From contig OZ336882.1 of NCBI GenBank assembly GCA_965287045.1, positions 73,780,001 through 73,844,000 of the forward strand: a stretch of DNA of 64,000 nt, written 5' to 3'. Both the position numbers and the translations under genes were made by a program. This DNA is from Carcharhinus amblyrhynchos (Eukaryota). Below, in pieces: positions 5,850 through 55,509 of the stretch (the stretch's first letter is position 1; every line of letters begins with the position of its first letter). The notes under the pieces are model-generated. The model made no database searches, was not told where the DNA came from, and was given only the letters and a program-made list of their open reading frames with translations.

Positions 5850-5851
5850 GA

Positions 5852-9023: not shown

Positions 9024-9964
9024 TCAAATGTTTCGCCTTGAGTTGGAAGTTTTACCTCCTTCATTATTGGCAAACCACTGAATCAATGTGCAGGGAGACT
9101 TCAACACCTTCTTCAGCTCCTCTTGGAATTTCCTCTGAGTTACTGCATAAATACACGTATTTGGGCAGGAACTCAAAAACTTCAACATTGTTCCAATTTC
9201 CATGGCGATATATTTAAGGTTTTTACGGTCACCTTGATAAGAATTGACACTTATAACTCTAGAAATTATAACACCAATGACAGACGGCAACCACAACAAT
9301 AAAAAACTGCCTGAAACAGCGAAGAGTAAGATGATAGAGTTCCTCCGCTTTTCTATCTCTGGGTCAGCGGTTTTCTCAGTTTTGTGAGACCCAAGTTTCC
9401 TTCGGGCTACATTTGCCAATATAATACGTCTAATTGTCAATGTATTAAACAAGACAATTAAAGTAAAGGGAAGCCAAACAAGCGAAAATATGTGAAACCA
9501 GAAGAACGCTATACCCTGAGGTGATGACAAAAACTCCACACTTGGCTGGCAACCCCACTGCACATTGTTAATTATTTGCTCAGGGTCATTTTCAACAAAA
9601 AATGGGATATCCTTCAAAAAGATCAAACCAGATAGAGTTGTTATAACGACAACTACATTTCTCTCAGTGCAATGTTTTGCTTTGAACTTCTGGCAGCAAA
9701 TTACTGCAAATCGGTCAAACGTAAAGAAGACAGTGAACCAAACAGACAAATCGAGTGTGACAGCGGCCATGTAGAGCACAAACTTACACACAGGAGTGAA
9801 GTGCAAAAATGAAAGTGTAAAATTGTAACTGAATATATGATATAACATTACATTGATAATCATGACCGATAGATCTGCTGTCACCATGGCAAACATGATT
9901 AATGAGATACATTTGGAAAGCCCACATTTTCCTCGGCAAAAAATCACAATGGTCACCAAGTTCG
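9024..9964 (-). CDS. GPR139/GPR142-like class A GPCR, gene 1, exon 2 (336 aa total)
   Basis: Open frame with 7TM pattern: AMVTADL, TPVC, FTFDRF, QWGC, DPEIEKRRNS, NTCIY. The acceptor TTCCTTTCTTTCAG (AG at 9966-9965) is phase 1 and gives P-A-N-L-V-T. Confidence 0.92.
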
Positions 9965-10086
9965 CTGAAAGAAAGGAAGAAAATTAGATAGTGTTCTAGC
10001 ATGTGGCGACTTAATTCATCCAAAAGATAACAAAAAAAATGAGAGAGCTAAAACTCAGTAAAAAGAAATAATTTGCAATGACTCAC

Positions 10087-10156
10087 CAGGAACACCAATA
10101 GCTGCTAGAATTGGATAGTAAATCTCTTTTATCAACAGGATAATAGGTTTCCCCAT
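10087..10156 (-). CDS. GPR139/GPR142-like GPCR, gene 1, exon 1
   Basis: ATG at 10156, MGKPIILLIKEIYYPILAAIGVP, then G|GTGAGT donor; 122-bp intron; homologous to exon 1 of genes 2 and 3. Confidence 0.92.
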
Positions 10157-10210
10157 CTTCTGTAAATGAAAGAATAGTGTAGATGGTAACATCTCTTAGT
10201 GCACATTGCA

Positions 10211-10261
10211 TTTATATATTCATCAATCCCCCAGGTAGTCAATTAGTGGAAGTCATCATTA
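10211..10261 (-). promoter_or_regulatory. Gene 1 proximal promoter: homeodomain sites, O/E-like site, TATA
   Basis: TAATGA 10261-10256, TAATTG 10245-10240, TCCCCCAGG on the + strand 10227-10235, TATAAA 10216-10211. Confidence 0.6.
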
Positions 10262-10699
10262 TCTTTAGTTATAGTCCTCTAACAAATAGATGTATGTAAT
10301 TGTTTAGCTCCTGCTGTTTGATTAAGAGAGTGCATTAACATTTTTTATTGCATATTTAAATAACAACGACAACAAAAATATGATAATATGTTGTGTTAGA
10401 TTACGAGCGGAAGGTAAACTTTACATTGTATAGTTAAACTTGCACTTTTGTTTATTTTGAGTAAATATATTTTGTTCATACTACTTACAGAAGTACCTCA
10501 TGAAGCACTGCAGCATGAAAAGTACAGATAGATCTTTTGATAGTAATTTGCTGTAACAATCTTACTCAAGATGAATTTGTTTCCTCAGAAGTGATAATAC
10601 TAATGACACTATAGTTCATCTCCAATTTGAGTGTTTTGCTAAATCTACACTGGAGTGGAGTTCGTCAGATTTGTAACTAATAACTTATTTATAAATCTG

Positions 10700-11010
10700 G
10701 ATGATTTGTTGAGCTAGAGAATGATATGGCCAAACTATTTGAGAGATTTGAATGTAAGCATACGGGTTTTAATATCGAGGCATTGCCAGGCCAGTAGCCA
10801 GTGTGGGTCAGCAAACACGGGGCTGATTGATGAACTGGACTTAGTTGAGGTGAAGTTCAAGGAAGCAGAATTTTGGATGGGCACTGATATATGTAAGGAG
10901 GAAGATGGCCAGATGGTCATTGGAATAGTCAAGTCTAGACTAAACCAACACATTGATGAGGGTTTCGGGAACAAATGAGTTGTGGAAGGATCAGACTTGG
11001 ACAATGCTTA
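10700..11010 (-). mobile_element. Ancient L2-like LINE fragment
   Basis: Homologous to 31350-31660 and 53330-53660 (GGAATAGTCAAGTCTAGA...GATGAGGGTTTC); minus strand reads SLDLTIPMT...IQNSA. Confidence 0.55.
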
Positions 11011-11019
11011 GAATGGGGA

Positions 11020-11632
11020 AGTATGGTTATTAATCTGATAACATTCAGTCTGTCTGTCTAAGATCATCCAGTTAGTCGGGGTTGTAGGGAGTGAAACAGA
11101 TGTCATGCTAGTCATCATTGTTTAATATTAAGATTGCTACTTTATCTGTAGTTCTGCAACATAGTTCCACTTGGGACATTTCACATTTCATTGCGATCAG
11201 AGCTGAACAAATGCCCCAGTCTGAGACAAAGGACTGACACCATTTTATAGCAGAAATTTCAGTTGGATCTTTTCCAAAAGGATATATGCTATTCCAGGAT
11301 ACATTAGTTTTAAGCATTCCCGACACTTGTTTCACTGAGAAGGATAAAGAATCAGTGAACATATCGTAGTGTCACAGTTTTCTGTTGTTCCGTTCCTGAC
11401 TCTCCAGTTCGCTATCTGTTAGTGAGGACTCGGTCACTCCTGTCGTCCATAATTCTGCTCAACTCCTGGATTTTAACACTCCGTGAACTGACAGCTGATG
11501 ATTCAAATTCCAATGCCAGGTTCCTGGCGAGTTCTCAGATGGCCTGTGCTTCGAGTGGGGACGATTCAATCATGATTATAGATTGTATTCAGTTCCATTC
11601 GGGACGTGATTCTTTGCATCTTGTAGTTGCAT
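11020..11632. repeat. Low-copy duplicated block, copy 1 (paralog at 31830-32462)
   Basis: Shares GGATTTTAAC...TGAACTGAC..CTGATGATTCAA..TCCAAT..CAGGTTCCTG, TTAATATTA.GATTG and the same L2 junction with copy 2. Confidence 0.8.
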
Positions 11633-12009
11633 CTGTCTAAATCAGGGATAGTTAGCACTGCTTTGTCAGAGCAAGGTCATGCCTAACAAATGTGTTTTAG
11701 TTTTTTGAGCATGTAACCAAGTGTATGGATGAGAGTAGTATGGTTGTTGTAGTTTACACGGATTTTAGCAAAGCCTTTGACAAATCCCACATGGGAGACT
11801 TATTAAAAAGACTAATGCACATGGGATACAGAGTGCCCTGATAAGGCACATCCATAATTGGCATATCAGTAGGAGACAGAGGCTGGTGACGGATGGCTGC
11901 TTTAGTGACTGGAGTCCAGTGACCAGGAGTGATCAGTGCTGGGACCCCATTGTTTGTCATTTATATAAATTACATAGATGACTATGTGGGGGATAGGATC
12001 AGTAATTAT

Positions 12010-12601
12010 ACCCCTTCCCCCCACCCCATGCTTGCCAGGTTCCCAGGCTGCGGCTTGTGCTCCATCTTGTGAACAAGGCTGCCTCAGTGGTTTCTTCATC
12101 GTTATCTCAAGACCGCAATCGTCCCACATCTTGACACCTATGGTTTGATTAGCAATTAGCTAACATACAGGCCATCACAAATAAGTTAACTGGCATACAA
12201 GGCAATGGGGCTGGTATAACAATTTTATGTTCGTACCTAACTCTATAGCATATAATATATCAGTACATAATACATAAATAGTACATAATAAATATATATG
12301 AAGGCATGCATGTAAGCTCCACTATGTTAAACAGAAGTCCACAATATTAAAGCCACAAAAATAGATACTAGCTGGGTCAGCCACATTCCTGAACACAGTT
12401 AGCTGGGAAAATCATAAACTTGTGTGCAGCAGGGACAGTTACTTTCTTATCTGTCTGGGATACATGAAAACAAGTCTTTCATCTGTCTGGGATATATGAA
12501 AACAAGTCTTACATCTGTCTGAGATACACAAAAACAATTCTCAATATTCTTTTTACAAATCTCTAAGTATTACAGAGTCCATTAACCCATCCCCTACTTC
12601 A
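12010..12601. mobile_element. Partial LTR related to the solo LTR at 61050-61697; contains a 32-bp x3 tandem repeat (12449-12542)
   Basis: Ends CATTAACCCATCCCCTACTTCA versus CATTAACCCTCCTCCTACTTCA at 61697; unit ATCTGTCTGGGATACATGAAAACAAGTCTTTC. Confidence 0.5.
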
Positions 12602-12845
12602 ATAATAAATCAAATCAAATTAAATATATCAATAAGATGGTCAAATGGACAAATAAGTGGCAGATGGAACTTTACCCTGAAAAGTGCGAGGTGATGTATT
12701 TTGGGAGGAGGAGCTTGACAAGGAAGTATACAATGAAAGGTCTGATAATGGAAGGTTCCAAAGATCAAAGGGAACTTGATGTGTTTGTCCATGTATCTTT
12801 GGAGGTGAAAAAGGCAGGTTAATAGGATGGTGAAAAAGGCATATG

Positions 12846-14376
12846 CCTTGGTGATTATTTTCCAAACGTTGCTGGATTCCGGGGAAGTGCCGGAAGATTG
12901 GAAAACGGCTAATGTTACGCCATTGTTTAAGAAGGGTGGCAGGCAAAATGCGGGCAATTATAGGCCGGTTAGTTTAACGTCTGTTGCAGGAAAAATGTTA
13001 GAATCCGTGATCAAGGAGAAAATAGCGAGGCATCTTGAGGAGAATTGTTTGGTAGAGCAGACGCAGCACGGTTTCGTTAAGGGGAAGTCATGTCTGACGA
13101 ATTTATTGGAGTTCTATAAGGATGTGACTAGGGCGGTGGATAGAGGAGAGCCGGTGGATGTGGTCTTTCTTGATTTTCAGAAGGCGTTTGACAAGGTGCC
13201 TCACAAGAGGTTATTGCAGAAGGTCCGGGGGCATGGAGTTGGGGGTAGGGTGTTAGCGTGGATAGAGGATTGGCCGTCAAATAGGAGGCAGAGAGTGGGG
13301 GTCAATGGGTGCTATTCGGATTGGTGGTTGGTGACAGGTGGAGTGCCCCAGGGGTCGGTGCTGGGGCCTCAGCTATTCACCATTTATATAGATGATCTGG
13401 AGGAGGGAACTGAGTGTATGGTGTCGAAATTTGCCGATGACACCAAGATTGGTGGAATGGCAAATTGTGCGGAGGGTGTGGAGAGTCTGCAGAAGGATCT
13501 AGATAGGCTGGGCGAATGGGCCAGGAACTGGCAAATGGAATTTAATGTTGGCAAATGTGAGGTTGTCCACTTTGGTAGGAATAATGGTAGGAAGGACTAT
13601 TACTTACGTGGCGAAAAACTGCAGCGTGCGATGGTGCAGAGGGACCTCGGGGTCCTTGTGCATGAGTCGCAAAAACCCAGCCTGCAGGTGCAGCAGGTGG
13701 TCAGGAAGGCGAATGGGATGCTGGCCTTCATAGCGAGGGGGATTGAATATAAAAGTAGCGAGGGCTTGCTGCAGCTGTATAGGGCACTGGTGAGGCCACA
13801 GCTGGAGTACTGTGTGCAGTTTGGGTCGCCGCACTTACGCAAGGATATTTTGGCCTTGGAGGGAGTGCAGAGGAGGTTTACTAGGCTGATTCCGGAGTTG
13901 AGGGGGTTGAACTATGAGGAGAGGCTGAATAAACTAGGCTTGTACTTGTTAGAGTTTAGAGGAATGAGGGGAGATCTCATTGAGACGTATAAGATGTTGA
14001 ATGGGATGGATAGGATAGAGGTGGAGAGGCTCTTCACGCTCAGAAAGGACAGTAGGACTAGAGGGCACAGCTTCAGGATAAAGGGGGGGGGGGCGGTTTA
14101 GAACGGAGTTGAGGAGGAACTTCTTCACTCAAAGGGTGGTGAATCTCTGGAATTCTCTGCCCGTTGAAGTGGTGGAGGCTGCCCCGCTCAATATTTTTAA
14201 GATGCGGGTTGATAGGTTTTTGATAGGCAAGGGGATTAAGGGTTATGGGGAGAGGGCGGGAATGTGGAACTGAGCCACGACAGATCAGCCATGATCTTAT
14301 TGAATGGCGGGGCAGGCTCGAGGGGCTGGATGACCTACTCCTGCTCCTATTTTTTATGTTCTTGTGTTCTTATGTT
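12846..14376 (+). mobile_element. Young 5'-truncated CR1 LINE with a nearly intact RT domain
   Basis: ORF 12827-14101: [46 protein letters not shown]; frameshift in a G-run; CATATG direct repeat at 12840-12845 and 14377-14382. Confidence 0.97.
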
Positions 14377-15469: not shown

Positions 15470-15995
15470 TGTGTGCAGGAAGTGGCTGCAGATGCAGCTC
15501 CTGAAAGCCGAGGTTCCAATATGGAGCAGTGGTTGGGGACAATACGGAGCGTCCGTGAAGCTGACGGAATTGTGGGATGCACATACAAACAGTTGGTAAT
15601 ACCACAAGCTCAGAAACCACGCACAGAAAGCGAATGGTTGACAAACAGGCAGAGCAAAAGGGCAATGCAGGCAGTGCAGGAAACCCTTGTGGCCATTCCA
15701 CTGAGGACAGACACATCACTTTGAATATTGTTGGGGGCAATGGCCTCATTAGAAAGCTGTGATAGCCCAACTTTTGAACCACAGTCAGCTCTACTGCACA
15801 GGAGAGAAGGATAAAGTGTGTGAACGCAACAGCTACAGGGAATCGAACTATAAGGGGAATTGACGGTCATTACTGTGGTGGCAAACGAGACTCTCGGATG
15901 CTATGTTGGCTCCCTGGTACTAGGGTCAAAGATTCTCAGAGCGGTACAAGGGCATTCAGAGGATAAGCGTGAATAGCCAGTCATTGTTGTACACA
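15470..15995 (+). mobile_element. CR1 ORF1 (coiled-coil / SGNH-esterase) remnant
   Basis: EQWLGTIRSVREADGIV and RGIDGHYCGGKRDSRMLCWLPGTRVKD. Confidence 0.7.
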
Positions 15996-15997
15996 TT

Positions 15998-19082: not shown

Positions 19083-19160
19083 ATACTAGAATCATAAACC
19101 AAAAGAGAAAATGCTGGAAAATCTCAGCAGGTCTGATAGCATCTGCAAGGAGAGAAACAA
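19083..19160 (-). mobile_element. Penelope-like terminal repeat fragment (second family)
   Basis: AGAAAATGCTGGAAAATCTCAGCAGGTCTGATAGCATCTG; also at 22042, 28817, 40912 and, reversed, ~63550. Confidence 0.6.
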
Positions 19161-20566: not shown

Positions 20567-20570
20567 ATGT

Positions 20571-20618
20571 TAATGATTACAGGTTTGATTCCCTAGAGTC
20601 TTGCTGCATGTATAAATA
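20571..20618 (+). promoter_or_regulatory. Gene 2 proximal promoter: homeodomain site, O/E-like site, TATA
   Basis: TAATGA 20571-20576, TCCCTAGAG 20590-20598, TATAAATA 20611-20618, ATG at 20686. Confidence 0.6.
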
Positions 20619-20685: not shown

Positions 20686-20755
20686 ATGGGGAAACCAACT
20701 ATTCTGCTAGTGAAAGAGATTTACTACCCTATTCTCGCAGCTGTGGGTTTTCCTG
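20686..20755 (+). CDS. GPR139/GPR142-like GPCR, gene 2, exon 1
   Basis: MGKPTILLVKEIYYPILAAVGFP, then G|GTGAGT donor at 20756; 369-bp intron. Confidence 0.92.
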
Positions 20756-21124: not shown

Positions 21125-22071
21125 CAAACGTATTAACAATCGGTCTTGTGTCCCAGGGAAACTGCGGCCTATCCAAATGTATCTCTACTTATATGGTAGC
21201 TATGGCAACAGCAGATCTCCTGGTCATTATCAACAATATAATGATATATTATATATTCAGCTATCATTTCCCGTTTTCATTCTTGTCGCAGACGCCTGTC
21301 TGCAGGACCAATATATATATGACTGCTGTCACGATCGATTTGTCTATTTGGTTCACAGTATGCTTCACATTTGACCGATGTGTAGCAATTTGCTCCCAGA
21401 AGGTTAAAACAAAGTACTGCACCAAAACTGTTGCAACCACCATTTTAACTGCCGCTTCCGTCCTGATTTTGTTAAAGAACATCCCGGTTTTGTTTGCATA
21501 TGAACCTCAGCACATAATTAACAAGGTGCAATGGGGCTGCCTGTCAAGCGTGACTTTTTTTTCTTCATCTCCGGGTGTAGCGTACGTCTGGTTTCATAGC
21601 GCCTGGGCAGTATTGGTCCCTTGTACTTTAATTATTTTGTTTAATTCTTTCACTGTCCGACGCATATTTGTAGCCAATAGAAGGCGCAGAGGCCTCCTGA
21701 GTCACAGGAGTGGAAATCACGACGATTCTCAGAAAGACAACAGAAGGAAATCCATCATTTTATTATTCACCATATCTATCACGTTTATATTGCTCTGGTT
21801 CACACATGCCGTGACTCTAGTAACTACCAGACTGACAAACAGTCTTTATTATCGAGGCGATCGCACTACCCCTGCATATATCGCCACTGAAATCGGAGCT
21901 TTCCTAAAGTTGTTGAGTTGCTTTCAAAATCCATGTATTTATGTAGCGACACAGAGCAAATTCAGAGAGGAGTTGAGAAATGTGATGGAATATCCATGGA
22001 GACCAATTTCCAAATTTGTTGAAAAATACAGATCTAAGAATAAAAACAAAATACTGGAATCTGAAACATAA
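21125..22071 (+). CDS. GPR139/GPR142-like GPCR, gene 2, exon 2 (338 aa total)
   Basis: Acceptor TCTCTCTTACAG (AG 21123-21124), phase 1; ANVLTIGLVSQGNCGLS, YMVAMATADL, TPVC, FTFDRC, QWGC, NPCIY. Confidence 0.93.
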
Positions 22072-22581: not shown

Positions 22582-23039
22582 GATGAGGAGAGGCTGAATA
22601 AACTAGGTTTGTACTCGTTAGAGTTTAGAAGAATGAGGGGAGATCTTATTGAGATGTATAAGGTGATGAATGGGATGGATAGGATAGAGGTGGAGAGACT
22701 CTTCCCGCTCAGAAAAGATAGTAGGACTAGGGGGCACAGCCTCAAGATAAAGGGGGGGCGGTTTAGAACGGAGTTGAGGAGGAACTTCTTCACTCAAAGG
22801 GTGGTGAATCTCTGGAATTCTCTGCCCGTTGAAGTGATGGAGGCTACCTCGCTAAATATTTTTAAGACGCGGGTTGATGGGTTTTTGATAAGAGAGGGGA
22901 TTAAGGGTTATGGGGAGAGGGCGGGAATGTGGAACTGAGCCACGACAGATCAGTCATGATCTTATTGAATGGCGGGGCAGGCTCAAAGGGCTAGATGGCC
23001 TACTCCTGCTCCTATTTCTTATGTTCTTATGTTCTTATG
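22582..23039 (+). mobile_element. Young CR1 3' end
   Basis: ORF 22609-22938 and TTCTTATG x3 tail; same subfamily as X/Y. Confidence 0.95.
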
Positions 23040-23904
23040 TAAAACAGCTTTGACAAGTGATTAGTGTTTAACTTGGCGAAACAGCCCATACATTGTGCAC
23101 CCTTGTGATGTTTCACTCCTTCCATCCCAACTATTGAGCCAAAGTCGTGAGTTGATGCTAACCACTATCTCGCACTCGACAGTCAGTGGCGTGCACAGTG
23201 ATAACGGGGGCAATATTACTGTCATTTTGGATTAATAAATTTGACAATGTAGTGAAGGAATGCAAAAATTAATGGTTTGGCATAAAACTATTATCAATGT
23301 TGATGATATAAAAATAAACCTCTGCCCAATTCAGGAATGTATTTATAGCTTGGTGTTCAACTTAATATTTGCACCCAAATAGAATAATTTGCAGCTAACA
23401 TCTAAGGCGTTTGAACATTCTATGAAAAAGCTGAGAATAAATTGTAACTTTCGGTTTTTATTTTCGTGATCATCTTGCCTTAATCTGTGAAGAACGTCGA
23501 GGAGCAGAGGGCATTGGAATGCAACTAAAAGTTGAATATGGACATCCAACACTATTGTCTTGCATATCCCATACTTCGAAAGTGAAGTTGCCAGAGGATA
23601 AATCCATAAAATGACAAAATAAATTTACATTTTACAGACATTGGCTTAGATCACAAACATAAGAAAGTGATAATAAATCCTTCCAAATCAGTTGCCCGGC
23701 CCGTGTTAACATACACCATATCTCCTCTGCTATCAAATGCCTTATTTTCACTGAGAAAAATGCAAAAGCTTTCCAGCAGGAATGGAAAACCTGCGGGCTA
23801 GTGAAAATGAGGAACTGAAATGAATAATATAAAGGCAGGGATGTAATCGGGTAAATACGAAATTATCCAACTTGGTAGGAAAAAAAGACAAGTTCGGAGC
23901 ATGT

Positions 23905-28949: not shown

Positions 28950-30410
28950 CCACAGTACAATAGAGGGGAAATTTCTGGAATGCGCATGGGATGATTTTCT
29001 GGAGCAATATGTTGCCGAACCAACAGGGAAACAGGTCATCTTGGACTAGACGTTGAGCAATGAGAAATGATTAGTTGTCAATCTAGTTGTGAAAGAACCC
29101 TTGGGAACAAGTGACTATAATATGGTAGAATTCCTTGTCAAAGTCAAAGTGACGTAGTTCATTCTAAGACCAGGGTCCTGAATCTCAACAAAGATAATTA
29201 TGATTGTATGAGGCATGAGTTGACCATGACGGACCGGGAAACATTGCTGAAAAGAAAGCCAGTAAGCAGGCATTTAAAGAAGGAATAGGTGAACTCCAGA
29301 AGTTGCTCATTCCTGTTTGGTAGAAGAGTGGCCAGGGAATTGCAGCCAAACTATGGCTTACAAGGGAAATTAGAGATAATATCAGATTCAAGGAAGAAGC
29401 ATACGACTTGGCAAGAACAGGCAATAGCCCTGAGGATTGGGAGCAGTTTAATTTCAGCAAGTTGGACCAAGGGATGGGATGGGAAAATGGAGTATGAAAG
29501 CAAGTTAGCAGGGAACATAAATGTCGAATATAAAAGTTTCTATAGATATGTGAAGAGAAAAATATTGACAAAAACGAATGTAACCCCTTACAGCCAGAGA
29601 TGGGACAATTCAGAATGGGGGATAAAGAAATGTCTAAGTAATTACATGTGTGTATTGTTTCAGTCTTCACCAAGAAAGGCATGAATAATGTACTAGAAGT
29701 GCTGAAGGAAACATATTTTATTGAGGAGCTGAAAGAAATTAACATTAGAAGAGAAATGGTTTGCAGAAATTGATGGGACTGAAGGTGGATGCGTCTCCAG
29801 AATGCTTAAGGGTGTGGCCCTATAAATAATAGTTATACTTTAAAAGAACTTTAACTTTTAACTTTTAAACAACCTTCACGGCACACGACAGCACAGAGTA
29901 GCTTAGCAGGGATTGATAGCCAAGTTCCGCACACATGAAGACGGCCTCATCCAGGATCTTGGATTCATGTCACACTATTTGTAACCTCCATAACTTGCTT
30001 GGGCTTGCAACATCTCACTTACTGTCCTGTCTGGAGACAATACTCATCTCTTTAACCTATAATAAATATTATCTCCACTCACATTGTCTGCACTTTTAAG
30101 ACTTAACTAGCTGTAAAGACTTGCATTCTAATCGGTGTTCTGTAAACTAACTGTGTGCCTTTACATGTCTGTTTGTGATCAGAACTCCCCACTCACCTGA
30201 CGAAGGAGCAGCGCTCTGAAATCTAGTCGTGTTTGTTGCCAAATAAACTTGTTGGACTTTAACCTGGTGTTATGAGACTTCTTACTGTGTTCAAAAAGGG
30301 AGGCAAAGAGAAAGCAGGGTGCTATAGTTCAGTGACCCTAACGTCAGTATTGGGGAAGTTGCTCAAGTCGATTATCAAGGATTTCATAACACGGCATTTG
30401 GAAGACATAA
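28950..30410 (+). mobile_element. Degenerate CR1 interrupted by a Penelope fragment
   Basis: FLEQYVAEPTGKQVILD, EYESKLAGNI, FKKGGKEKAGCYSSVTLTSVLGK. Confidence 0.85.
29866..30290 (+). mobile_element. Penelope-like element 3' end: GIY-YIG C-terminus plus pLTR with a degenerate hammerhead core (30191-30230)
   Basis: LIAKFRTHEDGLIQDLGFMSHY; CTGACGA-A-GGAGC-AGC-GCTCT-GAAA. Confidence 0.85.
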
Positions 30411-32989: not shown

Positions 32990-34845
32990 TTACAGACCTC
33001 TCTAAGGTCACCCCTCAGCCTCCTACGCTCCAGAGAGAAAAGTCCCAGTCTGTTCAGCTCTCCTTATAACTGAGTCCAACAAGTCCCGATAGCATCCTAT
33101 AAATCTTTTGTGTACTCTTTCTAGGTTACCAATATCATTCTATAATAGCGTGACCAGGATTGCACACAGTGTTCTAAGTGTGGCCTTACCAATGTCCTGT
33201 ACTAATTCAACAAGATGTCCCTGTATTCAGTGTTCTGACCCATGAAACCAAGCATGCCAAATGCCATCTTCCCCACTCAATCCACCTGTGACTTCACTTT
33301 CATGGAGCTATGAACATGTACACCACCCGCCTCCCGAACCCCCGCCGCCCCCACCGAACTCTTTGCTCTGTAACTCTCCCCAGTGTCCTTCCATTACCTG
33401 AATAAGTCCTGCCCTGGTTCAATCACCTCACATTTTTCTAAATTAGACTCCATCTGCCATTCTTCAGCCCATTGGCCCAATTGGTCAAGATCCCGTTGCA
33501 ATTGGAGACAACTTTCTTCACTATCCATTATGCCATCAATCTTGGTGTCATCTGCAAACTTAATAACCATACCCCCTACATTTTCATCCATATCCTTAAT
33601 ATAAATGACAAATAACAATGGACCCAGCACATATCCCTGAGGCATACTGCCGGCCACAGGTCTCCAGTTTGAAAAAAAACTCTCTACCACCACCTTCTGG
33701 CTTCTCTCAGGAAGCCAATTTTGTATCCATTTAGATACCTCACTCTGGATCCCGTATGATTTAACTTTTTTGCAACAGACTACCATGCGGTACCTTGTCA
33801 AAGGCCTTTCTAAAGTCCTTCTGCACTGCCCTCATCTACCTTCCTGGTTACCCCTTCGAAAAACTCAATCAAATATGTGAGACATGATTTTCCACTCACA
33901 AAGCCATGCTGAGTGTCCTAACGAGTCATTACATCTTTAAATGCCTGTAGATTCTGTCTCTCAAAATACCGTGCAACAACTTAACCACCACAGACATGAG
34001 ACTTACTGGCCTGCTGTTCCCAGGCTTTTCCCTGCAGTCCTTTTTTTAAACAAAGGCACAACATTTGCCACTCTTCAATGTTCAGGCACCTCACCCATGA
34101 CTATCGATGATTCAAATATCTCGGCTACGGGACCCCGCAAACTCCTCCCTAGCCTCCTTCAACGTCCTGGGATACACTTCATCAGTTCCCAGAAATTTAT
34201 CCACCTTGATGCGCTTTACGACTTCCAGCACCTCCTTCTCTGTAATATGTACACTCCTCAATACATCACTATTTATTTCCCCAATTTCCCAAACATCCAT
34301 GCTTTTCTCAACATTAAATATTGATGAGAAATATCCATTTAAGATGTCACCCATCGCTTGTGGATCCGCACATTTTGCCATCCTGATTTCTCTCTTAACT
34401 CTACTCCTACACCCTTCCAGAGATTCACTTGATCTCAGCTGCTTATGCATGTCATGTGTCTCTTTCTTCTTCTTGATCAGGGCCTCAATATCCCGGGTCA
34501 TTCAGGGTTCCTGACTTCAGCCAGCCTTGCCCTTCACTCTAAGAGGAATGTGTTTACCCTGAACCCTAGTTAACACACTTCTGAAAGCATGCCACTTACC
34601 AAACATCCTCTGCTTTCCCAAAGACTTCTCCAATTAACTTTTGAAAGTTCCTGCTTCATACCGTCAAAATAGGCCTTACCCCAATTTAGAATTTTTACTT
34701 CTGGGCCAGGTCTATTATACACCATAGCTATCTTAAAACTAATAGAATTATGGTCACTGGTCCCAAAATGATACCTCATTAACATTTTTGTCACTGACCA
34801 TTCTTTTTTCCCAAGAGGACATCAAGTTTTGCTCCCTCTCCAGTC
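32990..34845 (-). mobile_element. CR1 LINE, EN-RT fragments
   Basis: [31 protein letters not shown]. Confidence 0.9.
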
Positions 34846-34969
34846 ATTATCATTTAGCCTAATTTAGCCCCCCTACATAAGCAATAATCCATTTTATTCG
34901 TTTAGCTGAACTTCCAAAATTTAAAGATGGCAGATACATCTGAGAATATAATCACTCTACTCACTTTCT

Positions 34970-35023
34970 TAATGAATGATGTTGCAACTTCGATATCCCC
35001 GAGGTGATTTCACAGGATATAAA
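34970..35023 (+). promoter_or_regulatory. Gene 3 proximal promoter: homeodomain site, O/E-like site, TATA
   Basis: TAATGA 34970-34975, TCCCCGAGG 34996-35004, TATAAA 35018-35023, ATG at 35110. Confidence 0.6.
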
Positions 35024-35109
35024 TGGCAGGCTTATGAAATATATCAGCTCAGAAGTTTATACAGAGCAACATCCTGCAGCGTGAAGCAACACATCAGTGT
35101 AGGCTGAAA

Positions 35110-35173
35110 ATGTTTCCAATTGATATGGCTGAGAAAATTTTCTACATGATTCTTGCTATCATTGGTGTTCCTG
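35110..35173 (+). CDS. GPR139/GPR142-like GPCR, gene 3, exon 1
   Basis: MFPIDMAEKIFYMILAIIGVP, then G|GTAAGA donor at 35174; 2744-bp intron. Confidence 0.88.
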
Positions 35174-37917: not shown

Positions 37918-38864
37918 TCAATTTACTGGGAATTGTGATCCTGTCCCGAGCAAAATGTGGTCTCTCCACCTGCACAACCCGTTACCTAGTAGCCATGGCA
38001 ACAGCGGATCTACTGGTCATTGTCATTCAGGTGGTACTAAACTATGTCAATCCTTATTACTTCCCAGTGACTTTCCTGGAGATCACCCCTGTGTGTAGTG
38101 TTCGCACTGCCTTTGCTGTTGCTGCCACAGATTGCTCTGTCTGGTTCACTGTCACTTTCTCCTTTGATCGATTTGTAGCCATTTGTTGCCAGAAGTTGAA
38201 AACAAATTATTGCACCAGTAGAACTGCAGTTTTGGTTCTTGTAACAACTGGCATTCTCCTCTCTCTAAAAAACATCCCTTACTATTTTCTATATGAACCT
38301 ATAGTGCTCATCAACAATGTACCATGGTTCTGTATTCAAAAGTCAATCACTTTAACTGACGGTAGATGGGTGGTTTTTAATTGGTTTAGTAAGATTTTAA
38401 CTCCATTACTCCCATTTGCATTAATTTTTTTGCTCAATGCTCTCACGGTCAGATACATTTTAGTGACCAGTCGAGTCCGTAAGGGACTGAGGTCTCGGAG
38501 TAATGGAGAAAATCGCAGTGACCCAGAGATGGAGAGCAGAAGGAAGTCTGTGATTTTACTCTTCTCCATTTCCGGCACCTTCATCCTCCTGTGGTCAATT
38601 TATGTTATAAATTTCTTATATTATGTCATTAGAGCATTAGTTTCCTACACTGAATCCGAATATACATTTCAACAAGTCGGGTTTATGCTGCAAAACTTAA
38701 GCTGCAGCACAAATACTTTTATCTATGGTGTGACTCAGTCCAAGTTCCGAGAAAACATCAAGAAGGTGCTGAAGTATCCGATCACATCAATTACTAAATT
38801 AGTGAATAAAGAAAGAACTACTGAGATAAATCCAGAATCAGGTCCCCGTGTTCTCAGTACATAG
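37918..38864 (+). CDS. GPR139/GPR142-like GPCR, gene 3, exon 2 (336 aa total)
   Basis: Acceptor CCCTTTCTCTCTTGCAG (AG 37916-37917), phase 1; VNLLGIVIL, KCGLSTCTTRYLVAMATADL, FSFDRF, PWFC, DPEMESRRKS, NTFIY. Confidence 0.94.
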
Positions 38865-40911
38865 ATGGAATATTTATTCACAAATTCCCAATCAATAGAA
38901 AACGGAGTGCATGGCATCAATGGGCATGATGTGATGGCTGCAGGCGTGGGTACAGCCACCGTCACCATTGATTTAATTCCCAGCCAATCAGAAAGCTCCA
39001 TCCAACAACTGAGTCAAACTGGAATACATCATCCTAACACTGACATTGCTATCAGACGATCATGGAGTTTCATCCCTTAAGGCACAGCTGCCTAAACCAA
39101 TCATCAATCTCCCACGGGGAGAAAGAGGGAGAATGTAAGAGAGACCGGGGCTAGGATGAAAGTCTGCGAGAGAGAGAGTTTGGGACACTGAGGAGAAGTG
39201 ACAGAGAGTGGGTGTGAGGGAGAGATTGGGAAAGGGATAGAAACTGGGTGAGGGAGAAAGTGGCGGGAATCATCAGTGAAAATTCAAACCTCGGATATTA
39301 TGGTGGAGAAATGGTCATTGATGAAGCAGCTGAAGGTGGGTGGGTGACGAACACCGCCTTAAGGAGATGTAGCAGTACCTGAGTTTCAACTGGGGCATTG
39401 AGGCTTCAAAGGTCCCGCCCAACCAATCGATGACTGTCTGCACCTGGCCAATTACAACAGGACCTGACTGCCCTTCCGACCTGACAACCACTCCACTGAT
39501 TCCCTTGCCCAATTCCTCAACCGTGCTCCAGACAACCTGATTATGCCCTCGACATTAATTCACTACTCCTACATTGCACAGCTTCCCAATTACCAGACTG
39601 CTCAGATCCTTCAAACTTACGACATGACGATCACCATTCTAAATATATATCGCAGCTTGGCTAAACATCTGACCGGCCTCCTCTCATCCCTGACCTGACT
39701 ACCCCATCGTAAATTATCCAAATACCCTTCAAAACCAGATCTTCGACCATGCCCTCGAACTGACTAATCTGCTCAACTATCCTACTGCCCACCCAATCTA
39801 ACCAATTACTCACCCAATGACACCTTTAAAAATACCTGACTACTCACCTGAATAGGCAGAATTACCCCTCTCATCTCCTGCACTACTCTCCATTCACAAT
39901 CGTATTCTTTCCTGATCCGACTATGACTCTCAGCTGTGTTACCAAACTCCCAACGAGTCGGTTTAGAGACCACCCTTTGAAATTGCCTCACAGCTTTGAG
40001 AAATCTCGTACGCCATTCAAAGGACATTATAATCACTGAAACAGGGACAAACAGAGAATTTCAAGCTCGTTGTTACTAAAGGGGCCTTAATATCTGCATC
40101 TCATACCTGGGACTACACATCTCTATTTCAAAAGTCCATCATTAAGGGAAAATGGACTGTATTTGTATCTTTATAAAACTTACTCCATTCAGCAAAATAA
40201 TTTGATCTAACCTGACAATCACTCCCGGAAAGAACATCCTCAATACGAATGGTGATTCTTTCAATGGCAGGTGACTGGGACACCATAAGCCATCATAGAA
40301 AGGCCAAACCAATACACCAGGTAAAGCTCTCTTTTGAAGTCCTCATGGAGGAATGAAGTCAAATGAATTGAGGGGCTATTTCGAAGTCTTTATCTTCAGT
40401 TGTGAAATGAGAAAAAAATAATTTCGATAATCTAACCCCACATGGAAAGAACTCTGACAGAACAAGCTACCGGCCATAATCTCTTAACATCGAACGAACA
40501 ACTTCTGACGTCTCTGACCATCAAATACCAAGAAACCTCTGTAGAGGCACATCATCATGCGACATCCCACACTTTAATGGAACATTGTTTTCCCCAACTT
40601 GGGACGGATGCAAGCTGAACGCTTCCATGAAGCAATCTCCCTCTAAGTTTTGACATTCAGAACTTAGATCTCATGTTGAGTAATGTTAATGTCCATGTGT
40701 TTTTTTGCCTCACAGCGCAAGGGACCGGGTTCGATCCCCGGCTAGGGAAACTGCACGGTAATATTCCTGCAGTGTTTAAGTAAGCCCATCTGTGACAAAG
40801 AACCAACTGGTAACTTATTTGGTGAATCTGTTTTTTTCTATCTCGTACTGCTGTGTCTTTGAACTCACATGAATGTCTCTTCACATTCTGAATAAACAAA
40901 TATGATGATTT

Positions 40912-44837: not shown

Positions 44838-44930
44838 AGAGGTGAACACAGTAAGAAGTCTGACAACACCGGGTTTAAGTCCAAACCAGTTTATCTGACA
44901 GTAATCCCACAAGTTTTCGGAACACCGTTT
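44838..44930 (-). mobile_element. Penelope pLTR fragment
   Basis: AACACAGTAAGAAGTCTGACAACACC...AAGTCCAA is the reverse complement of the 1-76 family. Confidence 0.7.
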
Positions 44931-48611: not shown

Positions 48612-49166
48612 AGGCCGATGGTGGGGGGGGCATGGGTCAGATCATTCCACGCTGGTGAGGAAGGAAGAGGGATGTGGACCTTCTCATTATCTGGTGGGGG
48701 AGGGGGAGCGAGGGGGGCAAGGAGGCAGGTCAGACGTATCTCGGGTGCGGGAGACGAGGGACGCCAGATCATTCTCTGAGGGGGGTGGGTGGAGGAGGAG
48801 GGTCAGATGGATCTCTGGTGCTGGGTGGGGAGGGGGCAGGTGGGTGCAGGGTTGGATAAGGGGGATATTACGTTGTGCGGGTGGGGCATTGCCTGTGGGG
48901 GCCATCGTTCCCCGGCCATTTTTCATGGCCCAGGAGCAATGTGGCAGAGGATCATTTTTCAAATGTTACTGTCCATGTGCCATTGAAGGTTCCGATCGGA
49001 GCAGCAAAGTTTCCGGTGTAATAAGCCCTGCCCACAGGGCGATTCAGATTCACAACATTCACTTCAGGCTGAGTGCATACAGGGGCACCTCAGAACAGGG
49101 TTGACAAGTCAGAACTGAATCACGCCCTGATTCAGCACTGAGAATCAAAATGGTAAATACGGCCCA
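48612..49166. repeat. GC-rich interspersed repeat, probable non-autonomous DNA transposon
   Basis: G-rich body; terminus GGTAAATACGGCCC resembles those at 6811 and 18296-18376. Confidence 0.4.
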
Positions 49167-49189
49167 AAGAGTCAAAGATTAGCAGTCAG

Positions 49190-51050
49190 AGGAGTGTAAT
49201 GTTACAGAGAAGGAGATGCTGCAAGTCTTAAAGTGCATTAAGGTAGATAAATCCTCAGGACCTGATGAAGTGTATCTCAGGATCATTGTGGGAGGCTATG
49301 GGGGAAATTGCGGATCCCCGAGCTGAGATATTTGAATCATCGACAGTCACGGGTGAAATGCCTGAAGATTGGAGAGTGCCAAATATTGTGCCTTTGTTTA
49401 AAAAGGGCTGTGGGAAAAGCCTAGGAATGACAGATCAGTGAGCCTCACATCTGTGGTGGGTAAGTTGTGGGAAGGTATTTTGAGAGACAGGATCTGCAGA
49501 CATTTAGAGAGGCAGGGACGGATTAGGGACAGTTAGTATGGCTTTGTGAGCGGAAAATCATGTCTCACAAATTTGATTGAGTTTTTTGAAGGGGTGACCA
49601 AGAAGGTAGATGAGGGCAGTGCAGTTGATGTTGTCTACATGGACTTTAACAAGGCCTTTGACAAGGTACTGCATGGTAGGTTGTTGCTTAAGGTTAAATC
49701 TCACGGGATCCAGGGTGAGGTATCTAAATCGATGCAAAATTGGCTTCTTGACAGAAGCCAGAGGGTGGTTGTACAGGGTTGATTTTCAAACTGGAGGCCT
49801 GTGACCAGCAGTGTGCCTCAGGGATCAGTGCTGGGTCCACTGTTGTTTGTCATTTATATTAATGAATTGGATAAGAATATGAGATATGGTTAGTAAGTTT
49901 GCAGATAACACTAAAATTATAGTGGACAATATTGTGGACAGTGAAGAAAGTTATCTCCAATTGCAATGGGATCTTGATTAATTGGGCCAGTGGGCTGACG
50001 CATGGCAGATGGTGTTTAATTTAGACAAATGCAAGGTGATGCATGTTGGTAGATTGAACCAGGGCAGTGCTTACTAAGTTAATGGTGGGGTGTTGGGAAG
50101 AGTAACAGAACAAAGAGACATAGGATTACGCATTCATAGCTCCTTGAAAATGGAGTCACTGATGGACAGAGTGGTGAAGAAGGCATTCGGCATGCTTGGT
50201 TTCATCGGTCAGAACATTAATGTACTGTTAAAAGAGGTCAGAGTAAGGCTGGAATAGGGAATGTTCTATATACCACATAAAGAGACAGGCATAACTGGGA
50301 CCCACCCTCACTTGAAAGAAGTATAGAAATTGTTGTGTGACAGAGGAGAATGGTGCTGGATAGGGGATTCTTCAGGCATGTTTTTGAAGAAGAAACAAAA
50401 AGCTCTCAGATCAGTCTGGTGCGGAATCGAGGTGTAGAGTAATTGAACATCGATGGCAAGGAGGAGGCTGTTTGGGATAGAGAACTGAAAGTGGTTGACA
50501 GAGGGATGTGATTGATGAGCACTATTATCGCTAGATAATTAATCCAGAAACACAGCTAACGTTCTAGGGACCCCGGTTCGAGTCTTGCCATAGCAGCTCG
50601 TGGAATTCAAATTCAATAAAAAATATCTGGAATTATGAATCTACCGATGACCATGAAACCATTGTTGATTATCAGAAAGACCCATCTACAAGTATGTACA
50701 GAGCAAGAGGATAAAAATTGAAAGAATAGGACATATCAAGTGTGACGATGGGAAGGTTTGTATAGAACCGGTAGAAATAGCAGAGGTGCTCAGTGAATAC
50801 TTTATTTCAGTATTCACAGTGGAAAAAGGATCTTGGTGGTTGTAGTGCAGACTTGCGGTGGACTGAAAAGCTTGAGGATGCATTAAGAAAGAGGATGTGT
50901 TGGAGTTTTTGAAAAGGATCAAGTTAGGTAAGCGGCCGGGACCGGATGGGGTATACCCCAGGTTACTGTGGGAGGCGAGGGAAGAGATTGCTGAGCCTCT
51001 GGTGATGATCTTTGCATCATCAATGGAGACAGGAGAGGTTCTGGAGGATG
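49190..51050 (+). mobile_element. CR1 RT fragments (49190-50220, 50690-51050) with a SacSINE1-like head at 50520-50686
   Basis: [12 protein letters not shown]...[20 protein letters not shown]. Confidence 0.85.
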
Positions 51051-51929
51051 AATAGCAAGTAGAGAGAGAAAGAGAGAGAGAAATTAACAGGGACAGGTGA
51101 TGGTGAGAGTTTGGGAGTGCGTTGGAGAAAGTGGCAGTGAGGGGAAACAAAACAAGGGAGGGGAATGTAAGAAAGTGTGAGAGATGTGGAAGGATAGTGA
51201 GGGTTGTTACAAAGCAACAGTGTGTAAGAGTGGGATATTGTCAGAGACGGAGAGGGATGAGGGTGCTGGGAGGGGAGGGGAAGAGGTTAGGCGGATGAAA
51301 GGAGTGAGGAAACAGGTGGGATTGCTGTGAAGATGATAGCATGAACCGTCCAGGGACTTGTGAGGGAGATGTCTGAAAAAGGCCTGAGACAAGTAAAAGT
51401 AGAAAGTGTGGGATAGAGAGAGAGAGATAGAGAGTGGAGGGGCAGGGAGAAAAAGTTGACTTAATTCCTTTCATGTTATCAAATATTCCATCCCCACCAC
51501 AGATGTGTTATCAAACAAATTATTTGCACCAAGCCATGGAGATTATGAAATGAATTTTCAAGAGTCTGTTACGTGACAGAACAAGAGGGGTTGAGAGGTT
51601 TGCAAGTAGAATTTCAGAGTTGTTCAATCAAAGAGCTCAAAACTACATTGGCAAAATGGTTAAGAAATGGAAAAAAAATGAGAGAACGCTGTTAGGTGAA
51701 CAAATATCCTGTTGGATTATAAGGGCTGAAGCAGGATAAACATATATACAGTTTTCTACTTGTTCAAATGGATGCAGGGACAGGAAGTGTGGTAACGGCT
51801 GATGGAACTTAAAAAGATAGGGGACATTGGAGGGCTGAAGCAGTTTGCAGAGATGGGAAGAGTTGAAGGGAATGCAATGGGTTACAGAGTTAGCAAGTAT
51901 TGTTCAGCATAGAGCAAATTATTAATATT

Positions 51930-53310
51930 AAGTGGATTATAGATTTTGGGGATATTGCACAAGAGATTGTTAGCTAAAGTGGAAGCTGATGGAAATGAAG
52001 TTGACACAGATGGGAACTTGGTTGAGCAACAGTAAACAGAGAATTGTAATAATGTTTGAGTACTAAAATTGGGAGGATTTGACTAATAGCGTCCCGTAGG
52101 GTTCTATCTTGGGGTCTCAATTATTTACAATATGCAAAAACTGCTTAGATAATGGCATAAAAAAACTCAAATACCCAAATTTATGGATGGCACAATTGGG
52201 CAGCTTTGTAGATCATGTTGAGGACAGCATAAAATGACAACAGCTTTTTTGATAGATTTGGTAAATTAGGTAAGTGGTAAATGGGTTTCAATCCATCCAA
52301 GTGTGAGGTTATCCAATTCAGATTGTAGAAGGATAGAGGAGTGTTTGTTTTTTTCAGAAGGGACAAAATTAAATTCAATGGATGTCCAACAAGATTTGGT
52401 AGCCCAAGTGCATTGCTTGTTAAAATACCACGAACAGAACGCTGGTCTTCGTATCTAAACAATTCAAGAATAGGGATGCAGATTTTATGCTGCAGTTGTA
52501 AAAAACTAGTTAGGCTCCACTTAGAATATGTGAGCAGGTTTAGGTACCACACCTCAGGATTTTTTTAAAGTTTATTTATTAATATCGCCAGTAGGGTTAC
52601 ATTAGTGCTGCAATGAAGTTACTATAAAAATGCTCTAGTCACATCACACTCCAGCGCCTGTTCAGGTACAATGAAGGAAAAATTAGCATGATAAATGCAT
52701 CTTACTAGCACATCTGTCGGACTGTGCGAGGAAACCACAGCACCCGGAGGAAACAAACAGAAACACGGGAAGAATTTGCAAACTCCATACATACAGTCAA
52801 CAAAGGCTGAAGGACCCAACCTGGTTCCCTTGAGCTCCATGCGGGGCGTTCAATGCAAGTTTGCAAGAATGATAAGTTAACCCTTGAAGTCCAGATAAGA
52901 AGAGAGATTAGACAAATTATGCCTTTGCTCTCTCAAATTCAGAAAGTTGAGAGGTAAAGTCTACAAAATATTTACAAGGAAGGACAGAATGCATAAGGAT
53001 TGTCTGCTTCCACTGGTTGAGGGGTCTATAGTCTACAAATTATGGCCAAACCGTTCAGGAGAGATATTAGAAACATTTCTACACACGGAGAATGGTGGAG
53101 GAGTGGAACTCTTCTTCAAATGTCAGTGGACCATCGTTCAGTTATTAGTTTATTATGAGATAGACAAATGTTTAGTGAGTAGGTGTATCGAGGGTTAGAG
53201 GCCTAAGGCAAGTACATGGAGTTAAGCCACAGATCAGCCAGGATCTAATCGAATGGTGGAGCGGGATAAGGGGCTGAATAGCCCATTCCTACATCGATGT
53301 TCCTTTGTTC
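51930..53310 (+). mobile_element. Old CR1 with a nested minus-strand V-SINE (~52565-52830)
   Basis: CR1 RT and 3' tail remnants; SINE shows AAAGTTTATTTATT tail and GAAACCACAGCACCCGGAGGAAAC. Confidence 0.75.
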
Positions 53311-54666
53311 CAAAGATAGGGTGGAGCTGCAGTGCTCTGGAAGTTTAAAGATACATAGAGAAGTGAGATCCTGGTGGGTTTTGAAAGCAAACATAAGCGT
53401 ATTTAATTTGAGATATCAATAAAAATGAAAATGTGTATCGTTGTGAGTAAAGAGAATGCTTGTAAAATGGGATTCGGTGCCATTTTAATCAGAATTTGAT
53501 GCAGCCGAGGTTATGGAGGGTGGAAGTCGGAGACTGGTCATCATTGTGTTGGAATAATCGAGTCTGGATGTAGCAATGAAATGGATGAGGGTTACCACAG
53601 CGAATATACTGAAAGAGGGAGACAGTCAGGCAGCGTTATTGAGATGTAAAAGATGGCGTTGCAACTATACGATTGGGGGCTAACTATCAGCTGTCTTCAC
53701 ACCGGAAAAGAGAAGAAAGCAGAAACAGTTTTCAGAGGGTGGGGCTGCAGATCATTCACCAACTAAGGCTAATAGTCTCCTCCAAATAAACACACTTTTT
53801 TCTTCCCTCGATTTATCTGACCTCTTCCTCCGCCACTACCTCACGCTGGCTGGCAAACTCCGCCACCGGTCTCTGCTGCCCACCCATGCCCCTCGCTGGG
53901 CTTGTCCAGATGTGACAACGAAGACATCTAGTCTTGGCCTACAGTGTTGGAGGAGATGTGGGGAGAAGGGGGCTGGTGAGAGAAAGGCAGATTCCAGTGA
54001 CAAATCTGGAGAATCGCAATGGCCAGAGATTCAATAAATTGTTGTTATCAGTTACTACCTAGATTGACAAATTATACATTGTCAACAAGTGTTTTCCAAC
54101 ATCACAGTGTTCTTCCTTCGAAGGATTTTTTTTGTTGACAAAATTTGAGAAGCTGGGAATCGAACTAGCAGAGATATAGGAGAGACTGTGTCTGATGCAT
54201 CCCTTTCTAATCTTCAGGCCTTTTCTCTGACTATCCTCCTGGCTTCTTAATGTCCGCTCCTCCAAATGTCAATTCTTGTCCCTTGGTCACTACTTTCCTG
54301 TCCGTTGATTCCTCCTGTTAACTTACTTCCTGGGATTCGCATGCCATCTCTCACCATTGTTCCACTTCCCTTTGTTTTGTGTGACTCCGACTGCAGAGTT
54401 ACTGCAGGTCGTCCAAAAGTTTGATTGTGTTTGTCCCACTGCACATTATTGTGTGGCATTGCTTCTGCTCACTTCTGTCCGGTCCTCTGAATGCCTGTCC
54501 TTGCTTCTGATTCGCTATTCTTCTAAGTATAAGATACCTGCTGCTAATTTTGTTATGACCCCTCTCTCCCTGTTCCCTCTGAGCCATTGTTGAAACATTC
54601 AAGATGTTTCCTGCTTCTCCAGGCCCTTTTGCTCTGGCCCTCCTGTGTTTTTTTGCCACTTAATAC

Positions 54667-55509
54667 TTATTTATTCTTTATTGATTTGACAAGTAATGTA
54701 AATGGACATTTTACTACATTCTTCAACTGCTCTCTGAATTTCGACTGAGTCACCACGTAAATCAGTGTGTTTGTGCAGCAACTTAAATTCTGCAGCATGT
54801 ATGTGACATTTTCAAAGTTGTAAGAAGAATAATCATCTAAGTGATCAAGAACATCAAAAAAAAGTACACAAACCAGAGGAGTATGAAACTGCCCGATATG
54901 GTGAAGAATAAAATGATAGACTTCCTTCTGCTCTCCATCTCTGGATCACCGTGATTGTCTGCTCAGTCCTTTAAGGATTCTATTGGCTATTAGAATATGC
55001 CTAACTGTCAGAGCATTGAATAACAAAATTAAAATGAACAGGAGCAATGGCATTAAAACTTTCTCAAAATATCCAAATCCAATCCATCTAGGGTCCCTGA
55101 AATAACTAGGCTTATTACTACAAAGCCATGGTACATTATCAATAATCCATCTTGGTTTAAATGTAAAGTAGATGGGAATATTTTTTAAACACAGCAAAGT
55201 GCCAGTTGTTCCTAGGACCACAGATGCAAGCTTGGTGCAGTATTTAGATTTTAACTTCTTACTACAAATGGCGACAAATCGGTCAAAAGTGAAAGTGACT
55301 GTGAACCAGACAGAGCAGTCTGTGGCTGCATGCAGCATAACATAGCGAACAGTACACACAGGAGTGATTCTCAGGAAATTTGGTGGGAAATAATAATCAT
55401 TGATTCGGTTCAGTATAACCTCAGTGATAATGATCAGGAAATCCGCCACTGCCATGGCCACCAGGTAGTGAGCTGTGCAGATGGAGAGGTCGCACTTTCC
55501 ACGACACAA
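54667..55509 (-). pseudogene. GPR139/GPR142-like GPCR pseudogene (gene 4)
   Basis: LCRGKCDLS, YLVAMAVAD, FTFDRF, PWLC. A 14-nt deletion in ICL3 gives TGA at 54946; a second frameshift lies in the T8 run (54856-54863). The C-terminus MLQNLSCCTNTLIYVVTQSKFRE ends at TAA 54667. TM1 and exon 1 are missing. Confidence 0.92.

Follow-up and report, generated by a model that had tools for sequence, protein, structure and literature searches.

A 64,000-nucleotide (nt) stretch of the genome of the shark Carcharhinus amblyrhynchos (GenBank assembly GCA_965287045.1, contig OZ336882.1, positions 73,780,001 to 73,844,000 of the forward strand; hereafter the window) carries a cluster of related class A G-protein-coupled receptor (GPCR) genes: six-frame translation and tblastn recover three intact two-exon genes, g1, g2, and g3 (336, 338, and 336 amino acids), and one pseudogene, g4. 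An original prediction made from the sequence alone had proposed four such paralogs, of these lengths and in mixed orientation, and tblastn and splicing bear it out; the shared architecture it described, an exon 1 of 64–70 nt followed by a phase-1 intron between GxP and xN in the first transmembrane helix (TM1), is likewise found in g1–g3. On the minus strand, g1 has a 70-nt exon 1 at 10156-10087, running from the ATG to GxP and a phase-1 donor, and an exon 2 at 9964-9024 that holds most of the seven-transmembrane coding region and the stop codon (Pfam 7tm_1, E 7.6e-18). On the plus strand lie g2 (exon 1 at 20686-20755, 70 nt; exon 2 at 21125-22071, 7tm_1 E 3e-20) and g3 (exon 1 at 35110-35173, 64 nt; exon 2 at 37918-38864, 7tm_1 E 3.6e-16), the latter modelled with seven helices at a predicted local distance difference test score (pLDDT) of 91. 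The introns measure 122, 369, and 2744 nt in g1, g2, and g3, and all are GT-AG. The pseudogene is a 5'-truncated exon 2 on the minus strand, with homology spanning 55506 to ~54667; its fragment reaches 30.0 bits against a curated 7tm_1 cut-off of 30.5, which g1–g3 pass. In orientation, g1 and g2 stand head to head, g2 and g3 in tandem, and g3 and g4 tail to tail. Public shark gene models have N-termini that agree with the exon 1 peptides predicted here (for example, catshark P0228 with g1), and scanning the whole window for exons that run from ATG to GT and end in GxP yielded five candidates: the three reported exons, a shorter in-frame variant of the g3 exon, and one unrelated stretch. A tblastn search of the window for a further paralog found none; a fifth copy is rejected, there being only four related GPCR coding regions. 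No AATAAA or ATTAAA occurs within 1.5 kb downstream of g3 (38865-40400), in contrast to g1 and g2, and the 3' untranslated region of g3 may be long.

The copies are well diverged, with amino acid identities of 52% (g1–g2), 45% (g1–g3), 46% (g2–g3), and 61% (g3–g4, over 180 codons). The motifs QWGC and KEIYYPILAA are present in g1 and g2 (subfamily A), and PWxC and ATDCSVW in g3 and g4 (subfamily B). Relative to g3, g4 has a frameshifting deletion of 14 nt at ~54960, a stop shortly after, and more indels between TM6 and the third extracellular loop; the end of TM1, an acceptor, an exon 1, and a promoter for it were sought within the window and not found. A cluster of this kind could in principle reflect largely neutral amplification in a repeat-rich region, or genes with gonad-restricted expression and no sensory role, since about 31% of the window is self-repeated, with fragments of long interspersed nuclear elements (LINEs) and other repeats, and one of the four copies is dead. 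We regard this as very improbable: the pairwise ratio of nonsynonymous to synonymous substitution (dN/dS) is 0.26-0.35 (with dS 0.8-1.8, close to saturation), both sharks and rays have retained the subfamilies and probable orthologs, sequence differences gather in the ligand pocket, and the promoter motifs persist.

Judged from the present census and trees, the family is older than the shark–ray split and elasmobranch-wide, not peculiar to the C. amblyrhynchos genome. Exon 2 of g3, used as query, returned 1880 of 4636 candidates at E ≤ 1e-3 and exon 2 of g2 returned 1961 of 3333, the candidates being 90%-identity clusters and the totals taking in some non-family GPCRs. All 240 family matches listed are from sharks or rays (16 species) and are 51–73% identical, some of them possibly isoforms of a single gene. 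The census shows many paralogs per species: among the matches listed, at least 89 are from Heterodontus francisci, at least 40 from Pristiophorus japonicus, and at least 29 from Heptranchias perlo, with others beside them, and some species probably have about 100 genes. Clustering at 50% identity leaves 113 representatives at E ≤ 1e-30, all of which rank above the first identifiable gene outside the expansion. The two subfamilies proposed from motifs are recovered as separate clades in trees of 131 and 69 sequences, with Shimodaira–Hasegawa-like approximate likelihood ratio test (SH-aLRT) supports of 98.7 and 100, each containing rays and sharks, and the trees also show blooms specific to single species. 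These trees were built without named GPR139, GPR142, TRHR, odorant receptor (OR), TAAR, or ORA sequences and with five weak distant matches left out, and the supports given are split supports, not values displaced by re-rooting. Within them g1 groups with catshark P0228 and P0230 (SH-aLRT 99.4) and g2 with Mustelus P0121 and S. torazame P0122 (SH-aLRT 99.4), so that the tree neighbours of both are carcharhiniform genes. The nearest catshark relatives of g1 and g3 are on contigs of equal length, and so are S. torazame relatives of g1, g2, and g3, which suggests that the mixed cluster is old.

The family belongs to class A and, by its sequences, to none of the olfactory receptor families, even though it behaves like one. 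We aligned 102 members: the three exon-2 products of the window, 89 of the 240 named matches (91 had 310-345 residues and an intact N-terminal motif, and two of these were dropped for odd starts), and 10 further representatives. Pfam 7tm_1 matches 102 of 102, R3.50 is present in 102, C3.25 in 100, and the cysteine of the second extracellular loop in 98. Near-invariant cysteines at residues 14, 19, 90, and 99 of g3 exon 2 (102, 98, 99, and 99 of 102) lie in the first and second intracellular loops and are possibly lipid-modified or metal-binding. Placement in an already characterised clade would have spoken against the original prediction, and the OR, TAAR, V1R, T2R, and Srw profiles do not claim the family: none of the 102 matches the OR or V1R Pfam models at E ≤ 0.01, one matches TAS2R (E 0.0047), the TAAR1 match reaches only 21.8 bits, and V2Rs belong to class C. 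As in OR, TAAR, V1R/ORA, and V2R families, there are clustered paralogs, pseudogenes, a variable pocket, and homeodomain and O/E promoter motifs; the window genes have no Asp at 3.32. The coding intron in TM1 is a difference from ORs, which are usually without introns. Language-model neighbours (scores 0.96) include clusters from molluscs, nematodes, and arthropods in which 39-76% of the members carry Srw. Srw membership is rejected, with no match to the Pfam model among the 102; Pfam Srx gives weak matches in 16 of 102 (best E 4.3e-6). GPR139 has been reported as a relative of the MIP, proctolin, and FMRFamide receptors (PMC12208981), and srw reportedly may derive from peptide receptors (PMC3963977). 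The resemblance between srw-type chemoreceptors and the shark family could at most reflect parallel co-option from the same broad receptor group.

Among solved structures GPR139 is the best match, at 41.7 bits for g3 and 80.8 bits for the 102-sequence family profile, with 24% identity in the fold alignment; in the fold search its margin is slight (E 1.1e-8, against 2.2e-8 for other peptide receptors). It shares with the family GxPxN in TM1, an SxW-T motif in TM3, and W6.48. Prolines are absent from TM6 and TM7 in most family members; the lack of one at 7.50 is common to GPR139, whereas the missing TM6 proline and the many paralogs per genome set the family apart from it. Because of this likeness to GPR139, 229 of the 240 listed matches carry the automatic name GPR139 (one is named GPR142). 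A much closer relative hides under the same label. This sister gene ("probable GPR139", for example P0349 of coelacanth and P0386 of catshark) scores 172-228 bits on the family profile in 28 of 28 members; hhalign aligns the two profiles at E 1.7e-55 over 307 columns, and the sister-gene profile scores 97.7 bits on GPR139. Besides three sharks, each with a single cluster, it is found in coelacanth, sturgeon, teleosts, amphibians, turtles, and squamates; the approximately 86 entries naming an organism among the sister-gene matches listed (the best 120 of 145) include neither birds nor mammals, and there is no mammal among the organism-naming entries of the family and sister-gene matches listed. 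Like the family, it has a short N-terminus and a cysteine-bearing first intracellular loop, and it is apparently single-copy. By these scores, with GPR139 and GPR142 outside the tree, the nearest relative found is this non-mammalian sister gene, some 100–150 bits closer than GPR139, and on the simplest reading the expansion derived from its lineage, a third beside GPR139 and GPR142. With 241 bits on the family profile, 173 bits on the sister profile, and a branch between the two groups, the 339-residue receptor P0357 may mark the base of the expansion. The sister gene is possibly GPR210A or GPR210B of PMC6504862, the supplement of which holds no matching sequence or identifier. Two sister-gene members, P0389 of zebra shark and P0487 of tree frog, carry the names of TMEM183A isoforms, which may point to a conserved location within or next to TMEM183A that could serve as a synteny anchor.

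These comparisons bear on the possibility that the genes are extra GPR139/GPR142-type sensors of aromatic amino acids or neuropeptides, acting in brain or endocrine tissue and redundant rather than forming a repertoire. GPR139 residues implicated in agonist binding are F3x33, H5x43, W6x48, R6x51, and N7x38 (PMC5430874); the corresponding residues in g1/g2/g3 are A/A/V, H/H/S, W/W/W, S/H/Y, and T/A/F. GPR139 is the best match in the Protein Data Bank by sequence, profile, and fold, W6.48 is conserved in 101 of 102 family members, and H5x43 is kept in g1 and g2, all of which would fit such sensors. Against them, H5x43 is found in just 28 of the 102 aligned members, so that W6.48 is the sole agonist residue kept family-wide; F3x33, R6x51, and N7x38 are replaced, in columns that are among the most variable of the family; the fold match is barely better than that to other peptide receptors; and sharks retain, beside the expansion, a conserved relative that is single-copy and has a fixed pocket. 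We therefore consider redundant GPR139-type sensors quite improbable. Orthology to GPR139 is rejected on the sister-gene scores and on the mostly replaced agonist pocket, and the descent from the amino-acid sensors GPR139 and GPR142 that the original prediction assumed is, as such, not supported; its amino-acid-sensor rationale is unsupported because the agonist residues, W6.48 apart, are not kept family-wide.

The clearest contrast between the expansion and its sister gene lies in the pocket. We compared the entropy of 31 pocket positions, taken from a generic class A list with linear numbering and set before computing, with that of 52 other positions in the extracellular half of the transmembrane helices, using for the sister gene an alignment of 28 of the 120 listed matches; the p-values are descriptive, related sequences not being independent. 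Pocket entropy is raised in the whole family (2.12 vs 1.53 elsewhere, p=0.002), in subfamily B (1.47 vs 0.84, p=0.002), in 20 paralogs of H. francisci (1.14 vs 0.56, p=0.0015), and in 15 paralogs of P. japonicus (1.23 vs 0.88, p=0.047), and in the sister gene it is 0.74 vs 0.96 (p=0.16), at similar overall divergence (mean identity 0.56 against 0.55). Identity is lower in the pocket than in the rest for 942 of 946 subfamily B pairs and 969 of 1128 subfamily A pairs, compared with 1 of 378 sister pairs. The most variable transmembrane columns of the family are 3.33, 3.32, 3.29, 2.65, 7.39, 6.54, 7.35, 6.51, and 5.39, whereas Y3.33, Q5.42, R6.51, and D7.36 are invariant in 28 of 28 sister sequences. 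Of the 31 pocket residues, 27 agree between g1 and its likely ortholog P0228, and 12 between the paralogs g1 and g2. This contrast points to an ancestor with a fixed ligand and an expansion that would recognise many.

Upstream, the three intact genes share a candidate promoter arrangement built of TAATGA, a match to the O/E consensus YCCCNNGGGR, and a TATA box. In g1 (minus strand) the putative elements are TAATGA at 10261-10256, TAATTG at 10245-10240, an O/E-like site with one mismatch at 10237-10228, and TATAAAT at 10216-10210; in g2 (plus strand) TAATGA at 20571-20576, an O/E-like site at 20590-20599 with two mismatches that fits a TCCCyngrg core, and TATAAAT at 20611-20617; and in g3 (plus strand) TAATGA at 34970-34975, an O/E-like site with one mismatch at 34997-35006, and TATAAAT at 35018-35024. 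A putative distal element of g3 (34776..34849) has TAATGA-type sites at 34776 and 34844 (reverse strand) flanking an O/E-like site at 34809-34818, and nowhere else in the window do three TAATGA sites fall within 206 bp, as this pair and the proximal site do. In all three genes TATAAAT lies 60–92 nt above the ATG, TAATGA lies 40–48 nt above TATAAAT, and the best YCCCNNGGGR match ends exactly 11 nt above it; these distances are counted from the ATG or the TATA box. The window has 122 TATAWA sites, counting both strands: an O/E match with at most two mismatches accompanies 10 of them, TAATGA 7, and both motifs 4, all four in the g1–g3 promoters (g1 counted twice). Dinucleotide shuffles scored with a longer consensus matched in 4, 0, and 2 of 3000 cases, and all three motifs without anchoring occur in 0.74% of 6384 sampled 150-nt windows, real promoters included. 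In mouse, TAATGA and O/E-like sites are established motifs of OR promoters and enhancers (PMC8213819; PMC5608512); in mammals, O/E sites together with homeodomain sites characterise OR regulatory sequences, promoters and enhancers alike, and O/E-like sites are a mark of V1R promoters too (PMC8213819; PMC3247239; PMC3247230). A strict EBF palindrome matches none of the three upstream regions, and by plain alignment the upstream 1 kb regions otherwise share no match longer than 10 nt. Copies of the extended OR-enhancer homeodomain motif with one mismatch that keep TAATGA occur at 15746-15756 (minus strand), between the divergent g1 and g2, and at 6681-6691 (plus strand).

Such motifs do not by themselves single out the nose. 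Chemoreceptors of a non-olfactory sense, in taste buds, solitary chemosensory cells of skin or gill, other sensory neurons, or sensing cells of the gut, would fit a family whose size, turnover, and pocket variability name no organ, and many sensory neurons of placodal origin use homeodomain and EBF factors. We consider this doubtful: an octamer motif, which is linked to taste and solitary chemosensory cells, was not found in the three 200-nt upstream regions, and the pairing of TAATGA with O/E sites is known best from olfactory and vomeronasal receptor genes. In its favour, several V2R and OR genes of catshark reach their highest expression in other organs (PMC11979771). An immune family sensing patterns or peptides on leukocytes and diversifying against microbial ligands, like FPR or MRGPR, seems unlikely to us; birth-and-death evolution and a variable pocket are compatible with it. 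EBF is also a regulator of B cells. Motifs for PU.1, NF-kB, and the octamer were not found in the upstream regions of g1–g3, where one match resembling an interferon-stimulated response element occurs (g2, -521), and GPR139-type names are absent from the four searchable supplements of a shark immune single-cell atlas, in which naming may differ. Catshark OR genes are in part expressed in spleen (PMC11979771), as an immune role would allow.

We favour, as probable though well short of certain, the reading that the family is an odorant-receptor repertoire expressed in subsets of olfactory neurons. Its DNA-level support consists of the gene structure, the breadth of the family, a conserved scaffold with a diversified pocket, and common promoter motifs; the paralog number, the species blooms, and these pocket and promoter signs agree with and strengthen the original prediction of a birth-and-death family of chemoreceptor type, here a large one. 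By comparison, catshark has only 34 V2R genes and 4-9 each of OR, TAAR, and ORA (PMC10116579). The repertoire would have expanded by duplication from a conserved non-mammalian cousin of GPR139 and GPR142. TAATGA would be bound by an Lhx2-like LIM-homeodomain factor, and the O/E-like site, which ends 11 nt above the TATA box, by an O/E (EBF) factor, so that each gene is turned on in a subset of olfactory sensory neurons; in sharks these would be microvillous neurons of the Go/TRPC2 kind. The paralogs would differ in the water-borne ligands that they bind, which would be peptides or small polar molecules rather than Trp or Phe in particular, and would signal through a common G protein by way of the conserved intracellular loops, and the repertoire would turn over through duplication, pocket divergence, and loss, as g4 may illustrate.

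Several observations weigh against an olfactory repertoire. The promoter test has n=3, and the motifs were noticed by eye before thresholds were set, which makes it partly post hoc; an O/E match with at most two mismatches occurs in 47% of random 150-nt windows; and EBF is active in many neurons besides olfactory ones as well as in B cells. In subfamily A overall the pocket excess falls short of significance (1.39 vs 1.18, p=0.32), the pocket positions come from a generic list and linear numbering rather than from measured geometry, and hypervariable pockets are typical of immune receptors too. A search for expression or ligand data on family members found none. The olfactory neurons of catshark express V2R/OlfC genes, and V2Rs of teleosts are responsive to amino acids (PMC10116579), so V2Rs already offer an explanation of how sharks smell amino acids. 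This weakens the original argument from few canonical OR genes and a response to amino acid odorants. Catshark olfactory neurons are apparently almost all microvillous and V2R-expressing (PMC10116579), and therefore leave no obvious vacant neuron class. In addition, most OR, TAAR, and ORA genes of catshark have their expression peak outside the nose, and the top 50 genes of a catshark olfactory library include no GPCR (PMC11979771).

A stronger form of the olfactory reading, on which we are evenly divided, is that the genes constitute a fifth, independently evolved olfactory family of sharks and rays, in some species larger than OR, TAAR, ORA, and V2R combined, co-opted from a GPR139-related receptor, governed by the Lhx2/EBF-type promoter logic of mammalian OR genes, and hidden as "probable GPR139". 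Published surveys give cartilaginous fish an olfactory repertoire of about 10–50 genes despite large olfactory organs, and explain the small number as discrimination traded for sensitivity; the olfactory survey restricted its count to the four canonical families (PMC10116579). In the whale shark genome paper, a paucity of GPCRs in cartilaginous fish is noted (PMC8455134). If the fifth-family reading is true, the view of sharks smelling with only some 10–50 receptors is wrong, and the olfactory promoter logic was recruited by an unrelated receptor family as well. With at least 89 distinct members in one species, diversified pockets, and promoter motifs of odorant-receptor type, the family makes the small-repertoire puzzle directly testable. 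Even under the alternatives, these genes represent a large, uncharacterised, mislabelled vertebrate GPCR expansion, already in public annotation under the misleading label "probable GPR139". We found no description of a GPR139-like expansion in cartilaginous fish in a literature search that took in few subscription journals, so one may exist. Terms for the family name were not found in supplements of PMC11372145 (4 files), PMC13188829 (8 files), or PMC8455134 (12 of 24 files), and the accessible text of the GPR139 review (PMC12208981) does not mention sharks, nor that of the zebra shark paper (PMC10620051) GPCRs.

The rest of the window consists of LINE fragments and other repeats. Of 79 other open stretches of at least 95 amino acids, four pass the Pfam cut-off, all as RVT_1: fragments of one LINE family at 3380-3754 (plus), 5142-5888 (minus), 12809-14098 (plus), and 33397-33831 (minus), which we take to be CR1-like. 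Near-identical LINE 3' ends lie at ~2852-5849, 7212-7645, and 22583-23040. A scan of the window against Rfam gave no matches. A weak Myb/SANT-like match below the cut-off (E 0.0037) at 59864-60289 on the minus strand is possibly a remnant of a Harbinger-type transposon. Finally, a dispersed repeat with internal inverted similarity at 57638-57897 and 59078-59295, with copies at 1-78, 29935-30293, 44841-44922, and 60817-61032, may be a short interspersed nuclear element or a miniature inverted-repeat transposable element.

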